A stretch of 22,035 bases of DNA from a bacterium ADurb.Bin243 (GTDB lineage Bacteria > Muiribacteriota > UBA9980). The stretch spans positions 1 through 22,035 of the forward strand of contig MWBZ01000061.1 of the NCBI GenBank assembly GCA_002069765.1, in the 5' to 3' direction. Positions 5,736 through 12,276 of the stretch are shown piece after piece. The notes below the pieces were generated by a model. It saw nothing but the letters and a program-made list of their open reading frames with translations. It had not been told where the DNA came from and did not search any database. The translations under genes and the position numbers were made by a program. Positions within the stretch are counted from its first letter, which is position 1; the number at the start of each line of letters is the position of its first letter.

Positions 5736-7283
5736 TTACGCTTTTTTATTGTCGGTTCCGCCGTCGGCGTTATTGACGTTTTCTTTTCCCTCGAGCCTTT
5801 TGATTATGCTTTCGAGCTTGACGCCGGTAAGCGCTTCTATGGCGGGGGGAAGCTGCGAGATAACGTTGATGACTTCTTTCGTCATTTTAGAAGCTCCGCC
5901 GGGGCCGTCGCCGGAATTGATCATGACTATCTTTTCTGTGCGCGATAAGGGTTCCGCAACCGCGCGCGCGAGCTCGGGAAGCTTTTCGATTACCATCTGG
6001 ACTATGGCCGCGTCGTTATATTTCTGCCATGCCGCGGCTTTTTCGGTCATCGCTTCGGCTTCGGACTGGCCTTTCGCTTTTATAATCTGGGCTTCGGTCA
6101 TGCCGCGGTTCTTTTCGATTTCGATGCTGGTCAAGCCTTTCGCTTTTTCTACTTCGGCCTGCGCGAGACCCTGGGCTTTTTCAACTTCCGCGCTGGTAAG
6201 GCCTTTCGCTTTTTCTACTTCGACTTCGGTCAGGCTTTTGACTTTTGCGGCGCCGGCGAGCATTTCTATTTTCTGCTTTTCGGCTTCGGCCGCTTTTATT
6301 ATAGTCGCTTCGAATTCCTGCTGTTTTCTTTTTACTTCTTTTTCCTGTATTTCGATCGATTTTTCTTTTTCTACGATCTGTACGTTCATTTCTTCGCGCT
6401 TGACTTCCTGCTGTTTGATATTATATTCGAGGTCGTACGCGAGGTCCGTCTGCGCCTTCTTTTTATTTACCGACGCCTGATATTCGGCCTGGTTCATTTC
6501 AAAGTCGCGGGTTTTTTCGGCTATTCTCGTCTTGGCTTCGATCTTGGCTATTTCCCCGTCGCGGGCCGCTTCGGAAGCCTTTATGGTGGCTATCATCTGA
6601 GCGTTGGCCTCGCCTATGGAAGCGTCTTTTTTAATTTCGGCTATGCGCGCCTTACCGAGCGATTCCAGGTACTGGTTTTCGTCGGTTATATCGCGCAGCG
6701 TGAAGGACACGATGCAAAGGCCCATGTTGGAAAGATCGGGGGCCGAAACCTGCTGGACCTTTATGGCGAACTCGTCGCGGTTTTTATAGATATCTTCGAC
6801 GGTCATCGTGCCGAGTATCGCGCGGAGGTGGCCTTCGAGCGTCTGGTGTGCTATCTTCATGATTTCGGTCTGGGTTTTGGAAAGGAATTGCTCTGCGGCC
6901 GTTCCTATGGATATTTCATCGGATTTTACCTTGATCTGCGCCACGCCGTCTACCAGAACCGGAACGCCGTGCAGCGTTATAACCGGAGGCGTTTTGATAT
7001 CGAGCGTTATTAATTCCATGGACATTATCTGCGCCTGTTCTATGACCGGAATGACAAACGCGCCGCCGCCGTGGACGATTCTATAGCCGACGACCGAAAC
7101 CGATCCGTCGGGATGAATGACCTTGCGCTTGCGGCCTGAAATGATTAAAACTTCGTTAGGGCCTACCTTGATATACCTCGACGCCCATATATAAGCGAAA
7201 AGGAATATTACCAGTAAGACGAACCCGGCCATATAAGCCGCCGTTGAAGACATGGAATTCAGTATTTCCATAAATTGCCCCAT
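5736..7283 (-). CDS. Flotillin / SPFH (band-7) family protein, YqiK/FloT-like
   Basis: N-terminal TM helix (AAYMAGFVLLVIFLFAYIWA) followed by an SPFH domain. A long coiled coil follows, carrying about five tandem 11-residue flotillin-type repeats (AEVEKAKGLTS / AEVEKAQGLAQ ...). Lies directly downstream of an NfeD gene, the conserved operon partner. Alternative start ATG 7271 (MEILNS) is 12 codons in; the ATG at 7283 has an AAGGAG with ~0 spacing. Confidence 0.85.
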   Translation of the reverse strand: MGQFMEILNSMSSTAAYMAGFVLLVIFLFAYIWASRYIKVGPNEVLIISGRKRKVIHPDGSVSVVGYRIVHGGGAFVIPVIEQAQIMSMELITLDIKTPPVITLHGVPVLVDGVAQIKVKSDEISIGTAAEQFLSKTQTEIMKIAHQTLEGHLRAILGTMTVEDIYKNRDEFAIKVQQVSAPDLSNMGLCIVSFTLRDITDENQYLESLGKARIAEIKKDASIGEANAQMIATIKASEAARDGEIAKIEAKTRIAEKTRDFEMNQAEYQASVNKKKAQTDLAYDLEYNIKQQEVKREEMNVQIVEKEKSIEIQEKEVKRKQQEFEATIIKAAEAEKQKIEMLAGAAKVKSLTEVEVEKAKGLTSAEVEKAQGLAQAEVEKAKGLTSIEIEKNRGMTEAQIIKAKGQSEAEAMTEKAAAWQKYNDAAIVQMVIEKLPELARAVAEPLSRTEKIVMINSGDGPGGASKMTKEVINVISQLPPAIEALTGVKLESIIKRLEGKENVNNADGGTDNKKA

Positions 7284-7313
7284 CTCCTTTTGATATTTTT
7301 TTGATTTTAATTC

Positions 7314-7952
7314 TTATTCCTGAACGTAAACGTAGTTTTTATCGACTTTAACTATATTGACTTTTCTGTTTTTTTCGATAGGTTTTCCGTCGAGCGAACG
7401 CGCCATGGCTACCTGCCGTCTTCCTTTGGCGGCGAATACGAGCTGGCCTATAGGGTTTTCATCGTTGATTCCGACGGTGAGGTCTCCGGCGAGCCCTATC
7501 ATGTCTTCGTAGCGCACGTTGGACGTGCTCTGGACTTCTCTAAAGAGCATGGCGAAGGCGTAAAAAGTGAATACCGCTATTACCACGGCGAATATGACGC
7601 TTGAAACCACGCCCATTGGAGCGAAATTGGCCCCGAAAACCTTCTGCCAGCATATGCCGAAGCCGCCGAACGAAGTGGCGAAAACCGAAATAGTCATCGG
7701 CGAAAGAAGCGAAGGGCCGGAAAGATTTGAGTCTGAATGCATTTCGGCGCTTTGAGGCTCGCCGTGGCCGGCGTGGACGGTATCCGTCGAAGCCGCGTTT
7801 TCACCGTGGACAAGTTCGTGCGAGGAGGCCATATCGCCGTGATGGATGTCGGTGTCGCCCGAGACCGCCGAAAAAACGGCTGAAAGCACCGCGAAACCAA
7901 GGCCCAATACGAAAGAAAAAGTGTAGATCGAATTCAAATTGGCTTCTATCAT
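7314..7952 (-). CDS. NfeD-family membrane protein (YqiJ/YuaF-like), operon partner of flotillin
   Basis: Three hydrophobic helices and a His-rich loop, then a C-terminal OB-fold beta domain (GDLTVGINDENPIGQLVFAAKGRRQVAMARSLDGKPIEKNRKVNIVKVDKNYVYV). Start moved to ATG 7952 (MIEANLN...), which has an AAAGGAGA RBS. The upstream 20 codons of the tracked ORF do not look protein-like. Confidence 0.75.
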   Translation of the reverse strand: MIEANLNSIYTFSFVLGLGFAVLSAVFSAVSGDTDIHHGDMASSHELVHGENAASTDTVHAGHGEPQSAEMHSDSNLSGPSLLSPMTISVFATSFGGFGICWQKVFGANFAPMGVVSSVIFAVVIAVFTFYAFAMLFREVQSTSNVRYEDMIGLAGDLTVGINDENPIGQLVFAAKGRRQVAMARSLDGKPIEKNRKVNIVKVDKNYVYVQE

Positions 7953-8121
7953 AAAAATCTCCTTTGCGGGGGTGTATCGCGCCAACGCGGAAACAATAAA
8001 CGGCTGGCGCATGAAATAAACCGCCGCGCCTCATTAAAACCTTTAAATTATCTTAACATATTTAAGAATATATGTCAATTTTATTATATTCTTTTTTTAA
8101 CCTCATGTGTTTTCATTTAGC

Positions 8122-8151
8122 TTGACTGATATAACTATTTCATGTTATAAT
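8122..8151 (+). promoter_or_regulatory. Candidate sigma70 promoter for the HAD gene: TTGACT, 18-nt spacer, TGtTATAAT
   Basis: TTGACT at 8122-8127; extended -10 TG at 8143-8144 with TATAAT at 8146-8151. The -10 ends only 9 nt before the ATG at 8161, which implies a leaderless or near-leaderless transcript. Confidence 0.4.
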
Positions 8152-8160
8152 TTTTTCGTC

Positions 8161-8829
8161 ATGCATAAACAAAAGAAGAAAAGGCTTATACTTCTGGACA
8201 TAGACGATACTCTTTTTCGCTGCGACACTTTCGTGGCGTTTATAGCGTACTATCTTCGCCTAAATCCTTCGAGGGCTTTCGTGCTGCCCTGGATTCTGCT
8301 GCTGGCCGTTTTTTTTAAGCTGGGCGCGGTTTCAAACGTCACGCTCAAGCAAAACGCTCTGCTGATTTTAAAAGGCGAAACCCGCGCGTGCCTTGCCGCT
8401 TACGCCGGCAGGTTTTTGCGCCGCCTTTTCGCCGCAAAGCTCAATTTTTCCGTTTCTGAAGCTATAAAAAAACTTGTCGCTACGGGCCTTTACGATATCA
8501 TAGTAATTTCCGCTTCCCCGTCTTTTTACATAGAAACCATAGGCGGCAGGATAAACGCCCTGCGCACCATCGCCACCAATATTAAATTTGACGAATATGA
8601 CCGCCTGGTTCCGGTTCTTGACGGAAATAACTGCAAGGGCGAAGAAAAAATAACCCGCCTCAGGCAGGAGATAAACCTCGAAGATTACGACCTCGAAAAT
8701 TCATACGCTTTCTCAGACAGCGTTACCGACCTTCCCATGTTCGAGCTTGTAGGCAGGCCCGTGGCCGTTACGCCGGATTCAAAGCTTATGGCGCTCGCGC
8801 TCGACAAAAAATATATAATAATAAAATAA
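8161..8829 (+). CDS. HAD-superfamily hydrolase, subfamily IB (phosphoserine-phosphatase-like)
   Basis: Motif I LLDIDDTLF (DxDxT) sits near the N-terminus. Also present: motif II ISASPSF (S/T), the Lys of motif III in GNNCKGEEK, and the acidic motif IV SDSVTDLPM. Start set to ATG 8161 (MHKQKKKR...) rather than the upstream 8107 of the ORF track. Confidence 0.75.
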   Translation: MHKQKKKRLILLDIDDTLFRCDTFVAFIAYYLRLNPSRAFVLPWILLLAVFFKLGAVSNVTLKQNALLILKGETRACLAAYAGRFLRRLFAAKLNFSVSEAIKKLVATGLYDIIVISASPSFYIETIGGRINALRTIATNIKFDEYDRLVPVLDGNNCKGEEKITRLRQEINLEDYDLENSYAFSDSVTDLPMFELVGRPVAVTPDSKLMALALDKKYIIIK

Positions 8830-9762: not shown

Positions 9763-11025
9763 TCATTTTTTAGCCCGGCTTAAAAGTTCATAAATCTTAT
9801 CGTGGCCCTGTTTTTGCGCAAGGGTAAACGGCGTATCGCCGTGGAGAGTGGTAATGTTAATGTCCGCGCCGGATTCTATAAGGATTTTCACCGCTTCGTA
9901 ATGGCCGTTATATACCGCCCAGGTAAGCGCGGTGTCGCGGTACCCGGTTTCGGCGTTCACATTGGCGCCGCGGTTTATAAGAAGCCTTATGATGTCGCAG
10001 TTACCGTTCTTCGAAGCGTAGATCAGCGGCTTTAAATTGCTGAAATTAGAGTGTTCGTGGTTCGCGCCTTTTTCCAGAAGCATCTGGACCACTCCTGTGA
10101 AACCGCCGTCTATGGCGTAAAACAGGGCCGTATTTCCCGCGATATCCACGGATTCCATTGAGGCGCCTTTGTCGATCAAAAGCTTCACCAGGTCGGTAAA
10201 GCCCTTTTTGGCTGAATGCATTAAAGGAGTCATGGACGAAGAGTCCATTGCGTTGAGGTCGAAAATTCCGGATTCTATAAGGTTTTGAGCCGATTTAACG
10301 TCTGAATTTTGGATATATTGTATTATCATTGAATTGACGGCCAGTCTGCTTTTTTTTGCGGCCGGACGCGCCGGAGTTTTTTTAGGTTGGGCGCTCTGGC
10401 TTTTTTTGGCGCTCTGCCTGGACGGATAAGGCTGGAGCGCCTCTTCATTTTTTGAAACGTATATGCCGATCGCTATCAAAAAAAGGAGCATTACGAAACC
10501 GTATTTTAGTATGGTTATGATAAATGAAAATACGCCGGCTATAAAGCTCGAAGTTTGCCTGGCTTCGGAAGTGCAAATATATCTTCCGCCTTCCGGTTTG
10601 AGGGGAGTATGCGTTTTCGAAGCTTTTCCGGCTATAAGCGCGGCGATTTCTTTCTGGGAGTATAATTCTGCCAGTTCCGCCGCGGCCAGGCCGGAGCGGT
10701 CCTTTAAATAAACGCTCGCGCCTCTTTTTATAAGAGCCGCCGCCGCCTGTACGTTTGAATATGAGATAGCGTACATAAGGGCGCTGTTTCCGGAATCGTC
10801 GGTTTTATCGATTTTTGCGCCGTGATTTATCAGGCAGTCGATTATTTCTGCGTTAGAGGCCATGGACGCTATCATCAGTAACGTGGTTCCGGCTTTGTCA
10901 GACCAGCCGGCCAGCGATTTTTCAGAAGATAATATCTTTACGAGGCCCGCTTTATCGCCCGACAAAACGGCCGCGATCAGCCGGTCGTAATTATTATTGA
11001 GTTTTGCGTTGATATCAGCGCCCAT
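9763..11025 (-). CDS. Ankyrin-repeat protein with a central hydrophobic membrane anchor (3 ANK, ~32-aa hydrophobic segment, Lys/Pro-rich basic linker, 5 ANK)
   Basis: ANK consensus tetrapeptides and helix pairs recur: G.TLLMIASMASNAEIIDCLINHGAKID, TPLMHSAKKGFTDLVKLLIDKGAS, NTALFYAIDGG...VQMLLEKGAN, LKPLIYASKNGNCDIIRLLINRGANVN, DTALTWAVYNGHYEAVKILIESGADIN. The hydrophobic stretch is SSFIAGVFSFIITILKYGFVMLLFLIAIGIYV, followed by a basic linker (KKSQSAQPKKTPARPAAKKSR). AAGGTGA RBS upstream. Confidence 0.8.
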   Translation of the reverse strand: MGADINAKLNNNYDRLIAAVLSGDKAGLVKILSSEKSLAGWSDKAGTTLLMIASMASNAEIIDCLINHGAKIDKTDDSGNSALMYAISYSNVQAAAALIKRGASVYLKDRSGLAAAELAELYSQKEIAALIAGKASKTHTPLKPEGGRYICTSEARQTSSFIAGVFSFIITILKYGFVMLLFLIAIGIYVSKNEEALQPYPSRQSAKKSQSAQPKKTPARPAAKKSRLAVNSMIIQYIQNSDVKSAQNLIESGIFDLNAMDSSSMTPLMHSAKKGFTDLVKLLIDKGASMESVDIAGNTALFYAIDGGFTGVVQMLLEKGANHEHSNFSNLKPLIYASKNGNCDIIRLLINRGANVNAETGYRDTALTWAVYNGHYEAVKILIESGADINITTLHGDTPFTLAQKQGHDKIYELLSRAKK

Positions 11026-11065: not shown

Positions 11066-12037
11066 TTAACCGCCGGATATAATTTCATCCGCGATCCAGC
11101 CGTCATCTTCGTAAACGAAGTTCCACTGCTCGCAGAATTCGTCCGGCGCGTATTCGTCGCCGTCCACTATGCGCCCGGTGTTTTCGTCTATTACATAATC
11201 TATCATTGAAGCCCTTATAATCGTTTTCATGCGTCCGCCGCCGCCGTAACCGTCGGGTTCGAGCCCGTTTCCGCCGCCGGCGACTTCTACTATTTTGACG
11301 TCTATGATATTTATGTTTTTTAAAATATTTTTTTCCTGCTTGTGCAGCATATCTTCTATCTGCCTCTGGTGCTTGTAAAAAAGCCTCTGGCTCACATAGC
11401 TTTCGGCATATGAAGGCTCGCGCTCGCTCCAGGCTTCCTGCACCCGCATGAATACTTCCTTCACGCGTTCTTTTAATTCATACAGGTCGTTTCTGGGCGC
11501 TTCGGGCACGTCGGCGATATCCATGGAACGGCTGCCGTAAGAGCGTCCGGAACCCCCGAACGAGCCGCCATAGCCGCCCTGATATGACGAAGCGCTTCCG
11601 AAGCCGGGCGACGAAGACGGGAAAAAAGAAGTTCCACCGGAAGATGATTTAGAAGTCAGGAAATGTATTACGCCGATTACGGCTATTATAATGAAGGTGA
11701 AAAAAAGGATTATGGCCGAAGAAAAATGGCCGCGGCTCGACGAATAATATCCCCTCGCATAAGAAGAAGGATAGCTTCTGCGGCTGCTCGAAGAATATCC
11801 GGAGTAACCCGAGCGCCCGTAACTGCTCGAAGAATATCCGCGGCTGTAGCTAGAATAACTGCTAGACGAACTGTAAGAGCGTGAAGACGAGCCTCCGCTC
11901 CTTCCGGCGCGCGCTTCGCAAATGCCGCTCGAAAAGAAAGCGGCAAATGAAAACGCCGTTAAAACTGCGAGAAAAATTAAAATCGTTTTTTTAACGAATT
12001 TTTTATTCGTAAAATTTGTGCTTGTAAAATAATTCAT
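11066..12037 (-). CDS. Tim44-like-domain membrane protein with S/Y/R/G low-complexity regions
   Basis: N-terminal signal/TM segment (ILIFLAVLTAFSFAAFF). A ~55-aa SY/RS-rich segment follows (SSSRSYSSSSSYSSYSRGYSSSSYGRSGYSGYSSSSRRSYPSSYARGYYSSSRG). Then a second TM (AIILFFTFIIIAVIGVIHFL) and a G/S/Y-rich stretch. The C-terminal ~150 aa match the Tim44-like / NTF2-fold pattern (...GRIVDGDEYAPDEFCEQWNFVYEDDGWIADEI). Confidence 0.65.
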   Translation of the reverse strand: MNYFTSTNFTNKKFVKKTILIFLAVLTAFSFAAFFSSGICEARAGRSGGSSSRSYSSSSSYSSYSRGYSSSSYGRSGYSGYSSSSRRSYPSSYARGYYSSSRGHFSSAIILFFTFIIIAVIGVIHFLTSKSSSGGTSFFPSSSPGFGSASSYQGGYGGSFGGSGRSYGSRSMDIADVPEAPRNDLYELKERVKEVFMRVQEAWSEREPSYAESYVSQRLFYKHQRQIEDMLHKQEKNILKNINIIDVKIVEVAGGGNGLEPDGYGGGGRMKTIIRASMIDYVIDENTGRIVDGDEYAPDEFCEQWNFVYEDDGWIADEIISGG

Positions 12038-12065
12038 TTCAACACCTTTTTTTAATCGCTAAATT

Positions 12066-12094
12066 ATTATACCAGAATAATTTAAAAGTATCAA
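12066..12094 (-). promoter_or_regulatory. Candidate sigma70 promoter for the Tim44-like/ankyrin/EamA unit: TTGATA, 17-nt spacer, TATAAT on the minus strand
   Basis: On the minus strand, TTGATA is 12094..12089 and TATAAT is 12071..12066 (perfect -10). About 25 nt downstream lie an AAGGTG RBS and the ATG at 12037. Confidence 0.45.
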
Positions 12095-12181: not shown

Positions 12182-12276
12182 TATTACGTTATGGTTCAGG
12201 CGTTAAATGCCGGCCCATTGTTTAAAAAGAAAGTTCTTTAATTTTTAAATAATAATTATTGCGCAAAGGAGCGAAC

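Follow-up and report, generated by a model that had tools for sequence, protein, structure and literature searches.

What does a eukaryote-like run of serine, tyrosine, arginine and glycine do in a bacterial membrane protein? The question is raised by one gene in a 22,035-nucleotide (nt) stretch of contig MWBZ01000061.1 from the bacterium ADurb.Bin243 (hereafter the window), where a 323-amino-acid (aa) open reading frame (ORF) at 11066..12037 on the minus strand encodes a membrane protein with a Tim44-like domain. We put forward, with a probability of about 0.55, that the product is a bacterial Tim44-like membrane protein with a signal-like segment, an extracytoplasmic low-complexity tract (LC1), a transmembrane (TM) anchor (TM2), a flexible second low-complexity tract (LC2) and a cytoplasmic docking domain. 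The parts of the gene, with the basis of each assignment, are as follows.

11066..12037, minus strand: Tim44-like membrane protein, complete coding sequence (323 aa and stop), from the ORF list; orthologues at 88%, 60%, 56% and lower identity in independent metagenome-assembled genomes (MAGs) and metagenomes.
11906..12037, minus strand: residues 1-44, signal-peptide-like N-terminus with K-rich n-region, hydrophobic core at 18-40 and A42-R43-A44 at -3/-2/-1; hydropathy and AlphaFold2 helix.
11903..11911, minus strand: R-A-G motif, residues 43-45; alignments A1 and A2.
11726..11905, minus strand: LC1, S/Y/R/G tract, residues 45-104, predicted disordered, net charge +8; composition and a predicted local distance difference test (pLDDT) below 50.
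11654..11725, minus strand: TM2, predicted transmembrane helix, residues 105-128; hydropathy up to 2.96, AlphaFold2 helix with pLDDT up to 88.
11522..11653, minus strand: LC2, G/S/F/Y-rich linker, residues 129-172, predicted disordered; composition and pLDDT below 50.
11069..11521, minus strand: Tim44-like (NTF2-like) alpha+beta domain, residues 173-323, net charge -15; Pfam PF04280, pLDDT above 90 and Foldseek.
11234..11278, minus strand: clade-specific G-rich loop (GGGNGLEPDGYGGGG), residues 254-268, between two beta-strands of the Tim44 domain; alignment, pLDDT about 68.

The Tim44-like assignment of an earlier note on this DNA held in a hidden Markov model (HMM) search. Pfam Tim44 (PF04280) matches residues 184-307 with 45.2 bits, above its gathering score of 29.6 (E 1.4e-11; positions 16-129 of the 147 in the profile), and no other Pfam domain, RNA-recognition motif or other RNA-binding domain was found in the protein. 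In an AlphaFold2 model built on 16 homologues, residues 171-323 are predicted with pLDDT above 90 as helices packed on a five-stranded sheet. The hydrophobic segments seen by hydropathy (residues 18-40 and 105-128) meet predicted helices at 9-35 and 104-128, as expected from the N-terminal and second TM helices already noted, while pLDDT falls below 50 at 35-102 and 130-170. Foldseek against the Protein Data Bank (PDB) places the C-terminal domains of yeast (3qk9) and human (2cw9) Tim44 at ranks 1-3 (probability 1.00, target-normalised TM-score 0.54-0.58, E 4e-6), followed by the NTF2-like domains of ARC6/PARC6 and by a mitoribosomal chain d, which we take to be mL45. Since neither single-sequence nor profile searches gave a significant match to Tim44 among PDB sequences, it is the Pfam HMM and the fold search that tie the domain to solved structures. 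The NCBIfam model of TimA (NF033779) scores 11.4 bits against a cut-off of 80 (E 0.22), and the protein thus lies outside the TimA subfamily. A further NCBIfam match, to the SAG1386/EF1546 surface proteins (E 0.52), was rejected as a low-complexity artefact. The G-rich loop carries a conserved Leu-Glu-Pro (LEP) in the clade of the window protein and has no counterpart in distant relatives; its DNA is GGC/GCC-rich and holds a 13-nt near-repeat (D6).

The plan of the protein recurs throughout its relatives. All 24 homologues retrieved through a word index carry a Tim44 domain, and the 20 whose sequences were read share one order, in which an N-terminal hydrophobic segment is followed by a junction motif (ARAG in 14 cases), then by an S/G-rich tract and a TM helix, and last by the Tim44 domain; annotations among the 20 include Candidatus Wallbacteria, Planctomycetes and 'predicted lipid-binding transport protein (Tim44 family)' from the Joint Genome Institute (JGI). 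An exhaustive search with the domain only, leaving out the tract to avoid bias, returned 709 representatives at E<=1e-3, and the architecture was counted in 143 complete-looking sequences from its best hits. Motif, tract, TM helix and domain follow one another in 115 of the 143; the junction reads RAG in 93, ARAG in 83 and [ASG]x[ASG]G[GRKS] in 125. The tract spans 6-119 aa (median 33) and is mostly Gly/Ser-rich, with a G/S fraction of at least 0.5 in 89 of 108 relatives. R43 and G45 are invariant in alignments A1 and A2; A44 likewise shows no variation in A1, and its conservation in A2 is 90% or more.

By comparison, a tract that is both 40 aa or longer and at least 10% Tyr is seen almost exclusively in the clade of the window protein (P0001-P0008, P0028 and P0030) and in two outliers. 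Members of this clade combine a Tyr/Arg-rich first tract of 53-119 aa with a post-TM G/S/Y linker of 42-56 aa and the extra G-rich LEP loop. The closest named genome, Candidatus Wallbacteria GWC2_49_35, holds an orthologue at 60% identity, the 88% orthologue (L013) comes from a MAG, and a single-protein scan of genome contigs gave 2 loci. Because the plan is present in 115 of 143 relatives and long Tyr-rich tracts occur almost only in the clade, the overall architecture is the norm of the bacterial Tim44-like family and not new, and the Tyr/Arg-rich enlargement of the first tract is a variant specific to a Wallbacteria-like clade. The earlier note had taken the combination for an architecture not described before; that claim does not survive the count, and JGI already labels such proteins as Tim44 family. 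The same note had allowed that the low-complexity region might be confined to this one sequence, but the orthologues keep the tracts. When the RAG-LC1-TM module alone (residues 36-135) served as query no match was found at E<=0.01, a result probably due to low-complexity bias correction and so uninformative on carriers without a Tim44 domain.

The nearest known systems can be compared on this basis. Bacterial Tim44-like membrane proteins (COG4395) have an identical plan (signal-like segment ending in ARAG, G/S tract, TM helix, linker, Tim44 domain), although in typical members the tract is Gly/Ser-rich with little Tyr or Arg (median 33 aa) and the post-TM linker is short and basic, in contrast to the 53-119-aa Tyr/Arg/Ser tract, the 42-56-aa linker and the domain loop of the clade. 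The C-terminal domain of mitochondrial Tim44 (3QK9, 2FXT, 2CW9) belongs to the same Pfam family and is the best structural match to residues ~173-323, at an identity of 15-19%; it likely also sits at the cytoplasm-equivalent face of an energy-transducing membrane. However, mitochondrial Tim44 is peripheral and has an N-terminal domain binding mtHsp70 and Pam16/18, which the window protein lacks, whereas the latter appears TM-anchored, with a signal-like N-terminus and two low-complexity tracts. The alphaproteobacterial TimA (NF033779, Tim44/TimA family putative adaptor) shares the Tim44-type C-terminal domain, but the window protein scores below its cut-off. The mitochondrial ribosome-membrane adaptor mL45/Mba1, a membrane-face docking module, has a Tim44-like fold that stands among the top structural matches, with a different N-terminal part, no TM anchor and no low-complexity tract; unlike for mL45/Mba1, no evidence of ribosome association was found for the window protein. 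The bacterial origin of Tim44 and mL45 has been discussed before (PMC1950548, PMC5455965). We found no study in the searchable literature on the function of bacterial Tim44-like proteins or of their tracts, the bacterial homologues being treated only as ancestors of Tim44 and mL45.

Within this common plan, the composition of LC1 stands out. Residues 41-104 contain 29 S, 11 Y, 9 R and 9 G in 64 positions (91% S/Y/R/G), one 40-aa window of the tract consists of S, Y, G and R at 100%, and across the window and six related loci the Tim44-like gene is the sole ORF with a 40-aa stretch in which S/Y/G/R make up 75% or more and Tyr 10% or more. The 60 aa of LC1 hold seven overlapping [G/S]Y[G/S] motifs, four RS and four SR dipeptides and eight R, with no D or E; neither Q, N nor runs of RS/SR dipeptides were found in them. 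After TM2, residues 129-172 (LC2) comprise 16 S, 12 G, 4 F and 3 Y in 44. The S/Y/R/G segment, its motifs and dipeptides, and the second GS/Y-rich stretch reported in the earlier note are therefore all real.

What the note made of this composition fared less well. It had likened the segment to eukaryote-style FUS-, prion- or SR-like domains, a reading under which LC1 would drive phase separation or RNA-related assembly in an otherwise unknown architecture. The low-complexity domain of FUS is built of [G/S]Y[G/S] repeats, and FUS-type condensation is attributed to Tyr and Arg. Here the likeness is genuine as far as it goes: LC1 shares with such domains the closely spaced [G/S]Y[G/S] motifs set among Ser and Gly (seven in 60 aa, along with its eight Arg) and the disorder predicted by AlphaFold2, and no paper in the searchable literature describes tracts of its type. 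Yet FUS- and prion-like domains are Q/N-rich and nearly uncharged, whereas LC1 has no Q, no N, eight Arg and no acidic residue; it is 60 aa long, has a signal segment before it and a TM helix after it, is probably extracytoplasmic and keeps its sequence position by position. Likewise, the RS domains of SR proteins consist of RS/SR runs beside an RNA-recognition domain, neither of which is present here. The architecture is moreover the family norm, the family-level topology (see below) puts the tract outside the cytoplasm and thus away from RNA, and the residue-by-residue conservation (59 of 60 positions, with a ratio of non-synonymous to synonymous divergence, dN/dS, of 0.018) is atypical for tracts selected on composition alone. 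Neither the GC content (48.7%, with 45.9% for the window) nor the mixed use of Ser codons suggests foreign origin, and nothing pointed to a eukaryotic source. Because Q/N, RS runs and an RNA-binding domain are lacking, the probable location is outside the cytoplasm and conservation is residue-wise, a FUS- or SR-like cytoplasmic role of LC1 is unlikely, and we regard the eukaryote-style reading as a whole as quite improbable.

LC1 is under tight constraint. Compared with the 88% orthologue L013, LC1 has the same length, no indel and 59 of 60 identical residues, the differences amounting to 14 synonymous and 1 non-synonymous. An independent pair of orthologues, L014 and L001 (66% protein identity), was compared in the same segments. 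The values of dN/dS for the window against L013, and of dN for L014 against L001, are:

Signal segment: dN/dS 1.06; dN 0.61.
LC1: dN/dS 0.018; dN 0.116.
TM2: dN/dS 0 (0 non-synonymous changes); dN 0.19.
LC2: dN/dS 0.355; dN 0.70.
Tim44 domain: dN/dS 0.105; dN 0.163.

Synonymous divergence (dS) between the window and L013 differs little from segment to segment (0.33-0.46 with the signal segment left aside; LC1 0.42, domain 0.46). LC1 is thus under purifying selection at least as strong as that on the folded domain, and LC2 and the signal segment are fast-evolving. Among 11 clade members, pairwise identity is 0.65-0.73 in the ARAG block and in the juxtamembrane block [YS]RRSY[GP]S[SG]YG..GYY, 0.48-0.61 in the domain and 0.34 in LC2, set against a chance identity for the composition of LC1 of about 0.26 by our own calculation, with gapped low-complexity alignment inflating the observed identities. 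The conserved end blocks of LC1 begin GRSGGSSSRSY at its start and read RRSYPSSYARGYY at its end; the middle varies within the clade by indels of SYG/GYGSS-type units.

In principle, such conservation could be imposed by an overlapping gene, an antisense ORF or RNA structure, and mechanical ORFs do cover the tract at 11663..11884 (plus strand) and 11710..11946 (minus strand, other frame). Overlapping ORFs are, however, an expected by-product of a low-complexity coding tract, and a dS of LC1 close to that of the domain together with almost no non-synonymous divergence indicates selection on this frame only. Because dS is normal, an overlapping gene or RNA structure is ruled out as the cause of the conservation, and we consider this explanation exceedingly improbable.

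The DNA of LC1 contains an exact direct repeat, CTGCTCGAAGAATATCCG, located where the earlier note had placed it.

11823..11840, no strand assigned: 18-nt repeat copy 1, part of R66 and G67-S72 (GYSSSS); exact match.
11784..11801, no strand assigned: 18-nt repeat copy 2, G80-S85 (GYSSSS); exact match.

Both copies encode GYSSSS. Repeats of at least 18 nt arise in only about 0.05% of trials when synonymous codons are resampled (P ~0.0005), so the repeat is not a chance product. The exact pair occurs only in the window; one copy is exact in L013 and the other matches at 17 of 18 bases, and the repeat was not found in orthologues more distant than L013. The repeat arose recently, by duplication or conversion, and shows no sign of being unstable. 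The tract had also been called AGC/TCG-rich: AGC (9) and TCG (7) are indeed frequent, but TCT occurs 8 times and all six Ser codons are used (AGT 3, TCA 1, TCC 1).

Could LC1 nevertheless be a passive spacer, or a slippage-prone tract of the contingency type, whose length is free and for which the 18-nt repeat is the substrate? The non-random repeat, the range of tract length (53-119 aa in the clade, 6-119 aa in the family) and the mid-tract indels would fit. Contingency coding repeats, however, form head-to-tail arrays and differ in length between close relatives, and LC1 does neither: Tandem Repeats Finder reported no real tandem array (two marginal rows, scores 32-36), the 18-mers lie 39 nt apart with flanks that are not repeated, and serine is written with all six codons. 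The 88% orthologue has a tract of identical length with 14 synonymous changes against 1 non-synonymous, and the constraint is replicated in L014 versus L001. We therefore consider a tract of free length quite unlikely. The suggestion in the earlier note that it may expand or contract is at odds with these comparisons, length changes being seen solely at deeper divergence and in mid-tract.

Features that bear on membrane topology were counted over 104 family members with the standard plan. In these, the region before the first hydrophobic segment is basic (mean 1.5 K+R, 0.1 D+E), and the 15 residues after the TM helix hold a mean of 3.7 K+R against 1.2 before it; outside the SY-rich clade, 86 of 94 relatives have more K+R on the side of the helix towards the domain. 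Of 96 relatives with RAG, 84 have Ala three positions ahead of the invariant Gly (-3), and -1 is Ala as well, which fits the signal-peptidase-I pattern. In some members, Hint domains take the place of the tract behind the signal segment. At least two CxxC motifs occur in 15 of the 169 family sequences examined, and P0011 and P0097, the two scanned against Pfam, each show a sub-threshold zinc-ribbon match C-terminal to the Tim44 domain. Because of the charge bias of the family, the Ala residues at -3/-1, the CxxC and zinc-ribbon hints, and the contrast between a fast-evolving first segment and a frozen TM2, we infer that the tract lies outside the cytoplasm and the Tim44 domain inside. For the window protein itself this is extrapolated from its relatives, since the charge bias is lost or reversed in its clade. 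Four Lys precede its first hydrophobic segment, and the N-terminal segment is probably a Sec signal peptide cleaved after A44. A lipoprotein reading of 'SSGIC' (C40) was rejected, as the preceding residues are unlike a lipobox and the Cys is not kept in orthologues.

Taken at face value, the clade would allow the opposite orientation, in which LC1 is a cytoplasmic Arg-rich loop held by two helices and the Tim44 domain is periplasmic. The 15 residues before TM2 hold 2-3 Arg in the SY-rich clade and those after it 0-2 K/R, the reverse of the rest of the family; LC1 has eight Arg and no acidic residue, and the domain has a net charge of -15. Set against this are the K-rich N-terminus with its four Lys followed by A-x-A, a first segment that evolves like a signal peptide next to the frozen TM2, and the opposite bias in the 86 of 94 other relatives. 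Moreover, the positive-inside rule does not bind long translocated loops, which are exempt from it, and the homologous domains of Tim44 and mL45 act on the matrix face, the equivalent of the cytoplasm. We consider an inverted topology unlikely.

In this context, and returning to an extracytoplasmic LC1, a possible mechanism can be outlined. A Sec signal peptide would be cleaved at A44|G45, leaving LC1 on the outer face of the cytoplasmic membrane, with the conserved TM2 as membrane anchor; LC2 would form a flexible link in the cytoplasm to the acidic Tim44 domain, which would serve as a docking or lipid-/partner-binding module at the inner membrane face, by analogy with Tim44 and mL45/Mba1 on the matrix face. 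In the most speculative step, LC1 (+8, 11 Tyr, seven [G/S]Y[G/S]) would act as a sequence-specific cationic, aromatic interaction segment; it may self-associate via Tyr/Arg contacts or bind anionic envelope components, which would cluster or position the protein, possibly together with a co-transcribed ankyrin membrane protein.

Several points weigh against this reading. The positive-inside signal is lost or reversed in the very clade concerned, and the G/S/Y flavour of LC1 is found as well in LC2 and the domain loop, which are both presumed to lie across the membrane from LC1. Few substitutions underlie the dN/dS values (15 in LC1), and identity is inflated by the alignment of low-complexity sequence. 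The pairing with the ankyrin gene (see below) is limited to one subclade, L010 and L015 of the SY-rich clade being without it, and may reflect shared ancestry and not function. Finally, no demonstrated function for any member of the bacterial Tim44-like family was found in the searchable literature.

A bolder version of the mechanism would make LC1 a cationic, Tyr-rich extracytoplasmic 'sticker' with FUS-like [G/S]Y[G/S] motifs that drives homotypic higher-order assembly (condensate-, gel- or kinked-beta-like) on the outer membrane face of a candidate-phylum bacterium and so clusters the Tim44-type domain and the ankyrin partner via the TM helix; a related proposal is that processing or ligation takes place at A-R-A|G(G)n, since Hint-type autoprocessing domains occupy precisely this junction in some relatives. 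We regard these ideas as unlikely. If true, the 'sticker' would be a transmembrane clustering device without a described bacterial counterpart. In P0079, P0093, P0104, P0132, P0133 and P0152, Hint/intein-type domains (PT-HINT, Intein_splicing, Hint, Hint_2), one to three in tandem, stand in place of the G/S tract; they begin 'ARGGGG|CF...' and end 'HN|K', and look like bacterial intein-like autoprocessing domains and not canonical inteins. Their placement is a hint that processing may take place at the oligo-Gly junction.

Whatever the role of LC1, the locus bears on a wider family. Bacterial Tim44-like proteins are widespread, with 709 representative clusters detectable from this one domain, and are presumed to have given rise to two membrane adaptors of mitochondria, Tim44 and mL45/Mba1. 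The N-terminal 'junk' of the family has structure, with an invariant ARAG junction and a tract that ranges from a few glycines to 119 residues. In the clade, the tract is conserved as tightly as the folded domain, which makes it a functional element open to test and not a mere linker, and LC1 is a rare candidate for a sequence-constrained Tyr/Arg-rich disordered region, probably outside the bacterial cytoplasm. Should it prove ordinary, the result would still correct the impression of a eukaryote-like oddity.

The gene lies within a neighbourhood of which parts are kept in related loci. Signals around it and the gene that follows it are:

12066..12094, minus strand: sigma-70-type promoter-like site TTGATA-17-TATAAT with extended -10 TG (TGnTATAAT), 11 of 12 consensus positions; consensus match only.
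12043..12047, minus strand: Shine-Dalgarno-like AGGTG, 5 nt 5' of the ATG; read from the sequence.
9763..11025, minus strand: ankyrin protein of 420 aa, in which a hydrophobic segment and then a basic linker separate two ankyrin blocks; Pfam Ank_2 166.6 bits, 40 nt 3' of the Tim44-like stop.

No terminator-like site was found in the 40-nt gap before the ankyrin gene, and an ankyrin orthologue lies directly downstream of the Tim44-like gene in L001, L002, L004 and L012, in L004 despite a remaining neighbourhood that differs. A 426-aa ORF occupies the position of the ankyrin gene in L014. Because of the promoter-like site upstream, the gap free of a terminator-like site and the orthologues in four loci, the ankyrin gene is a probable operon partner within one subclade. 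A family-wide functional link was rejected, the pairing being absent in L006, L008, L010 and L015. The membrane topology of the ankyrin protein is puzzling: the protein has no signal peptide, and its one hydrophobic segment (161-193; 21-25 aa in orthologues), which a very basic linker follows, has an ankyrin block on either side. In a distant lineage, two Tim44-like paralogues stand in tandem on the same strand (L008 4240-5824 and L009 4206-5790).

An SPFH/Band-7 (flotillin-like) gene, a 232-aa ORF and a HAD hydrolase gene lie near the Tim44-like gene (window regions 5736-8012, minus strand, and 8107-8829, plus strand) and are kept near it in L001, L002 and L010; the 232-aa ORF sits where orthologous loci have a gene marked by NfeD_TM. 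This proximity of SPFH, NfeD-like and HAD genes could reflect shared ancestry or a membrane-organisation neighbourhood. A defence-system search with PADLOC gave no match for the Tim44-like, major-vault-protein (MVP)-like, SPFH and NfeD-like proteins and only generic ankyrin hits for the ankyrin protein, and on this result a defence-island reading was rejected. The MVP-like gene, of 835 aa at 12259-14766 on the plus strand (Pfam MVP_shoulder 92.6 bits, weak Vault_3), stands between truA and the Tim44-like gene. Since truA directly adjoins the Tim44-like gene in L001, L002 and L014, the MVP-like gene is a lineage-specific insertion; bacterial MVP homologues have been described already (bioRxiv 10.1101/872010; PMC3762200). 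Further along the plus strand, two large hybrid histidine kinases are encoded at 15671-18889 and 19008-21743 (PAS, HisKA, HATPase and receiver domains, with Hpt in one); they are syntenic with the Tim44-like gene in L001, L002 and probably L014.

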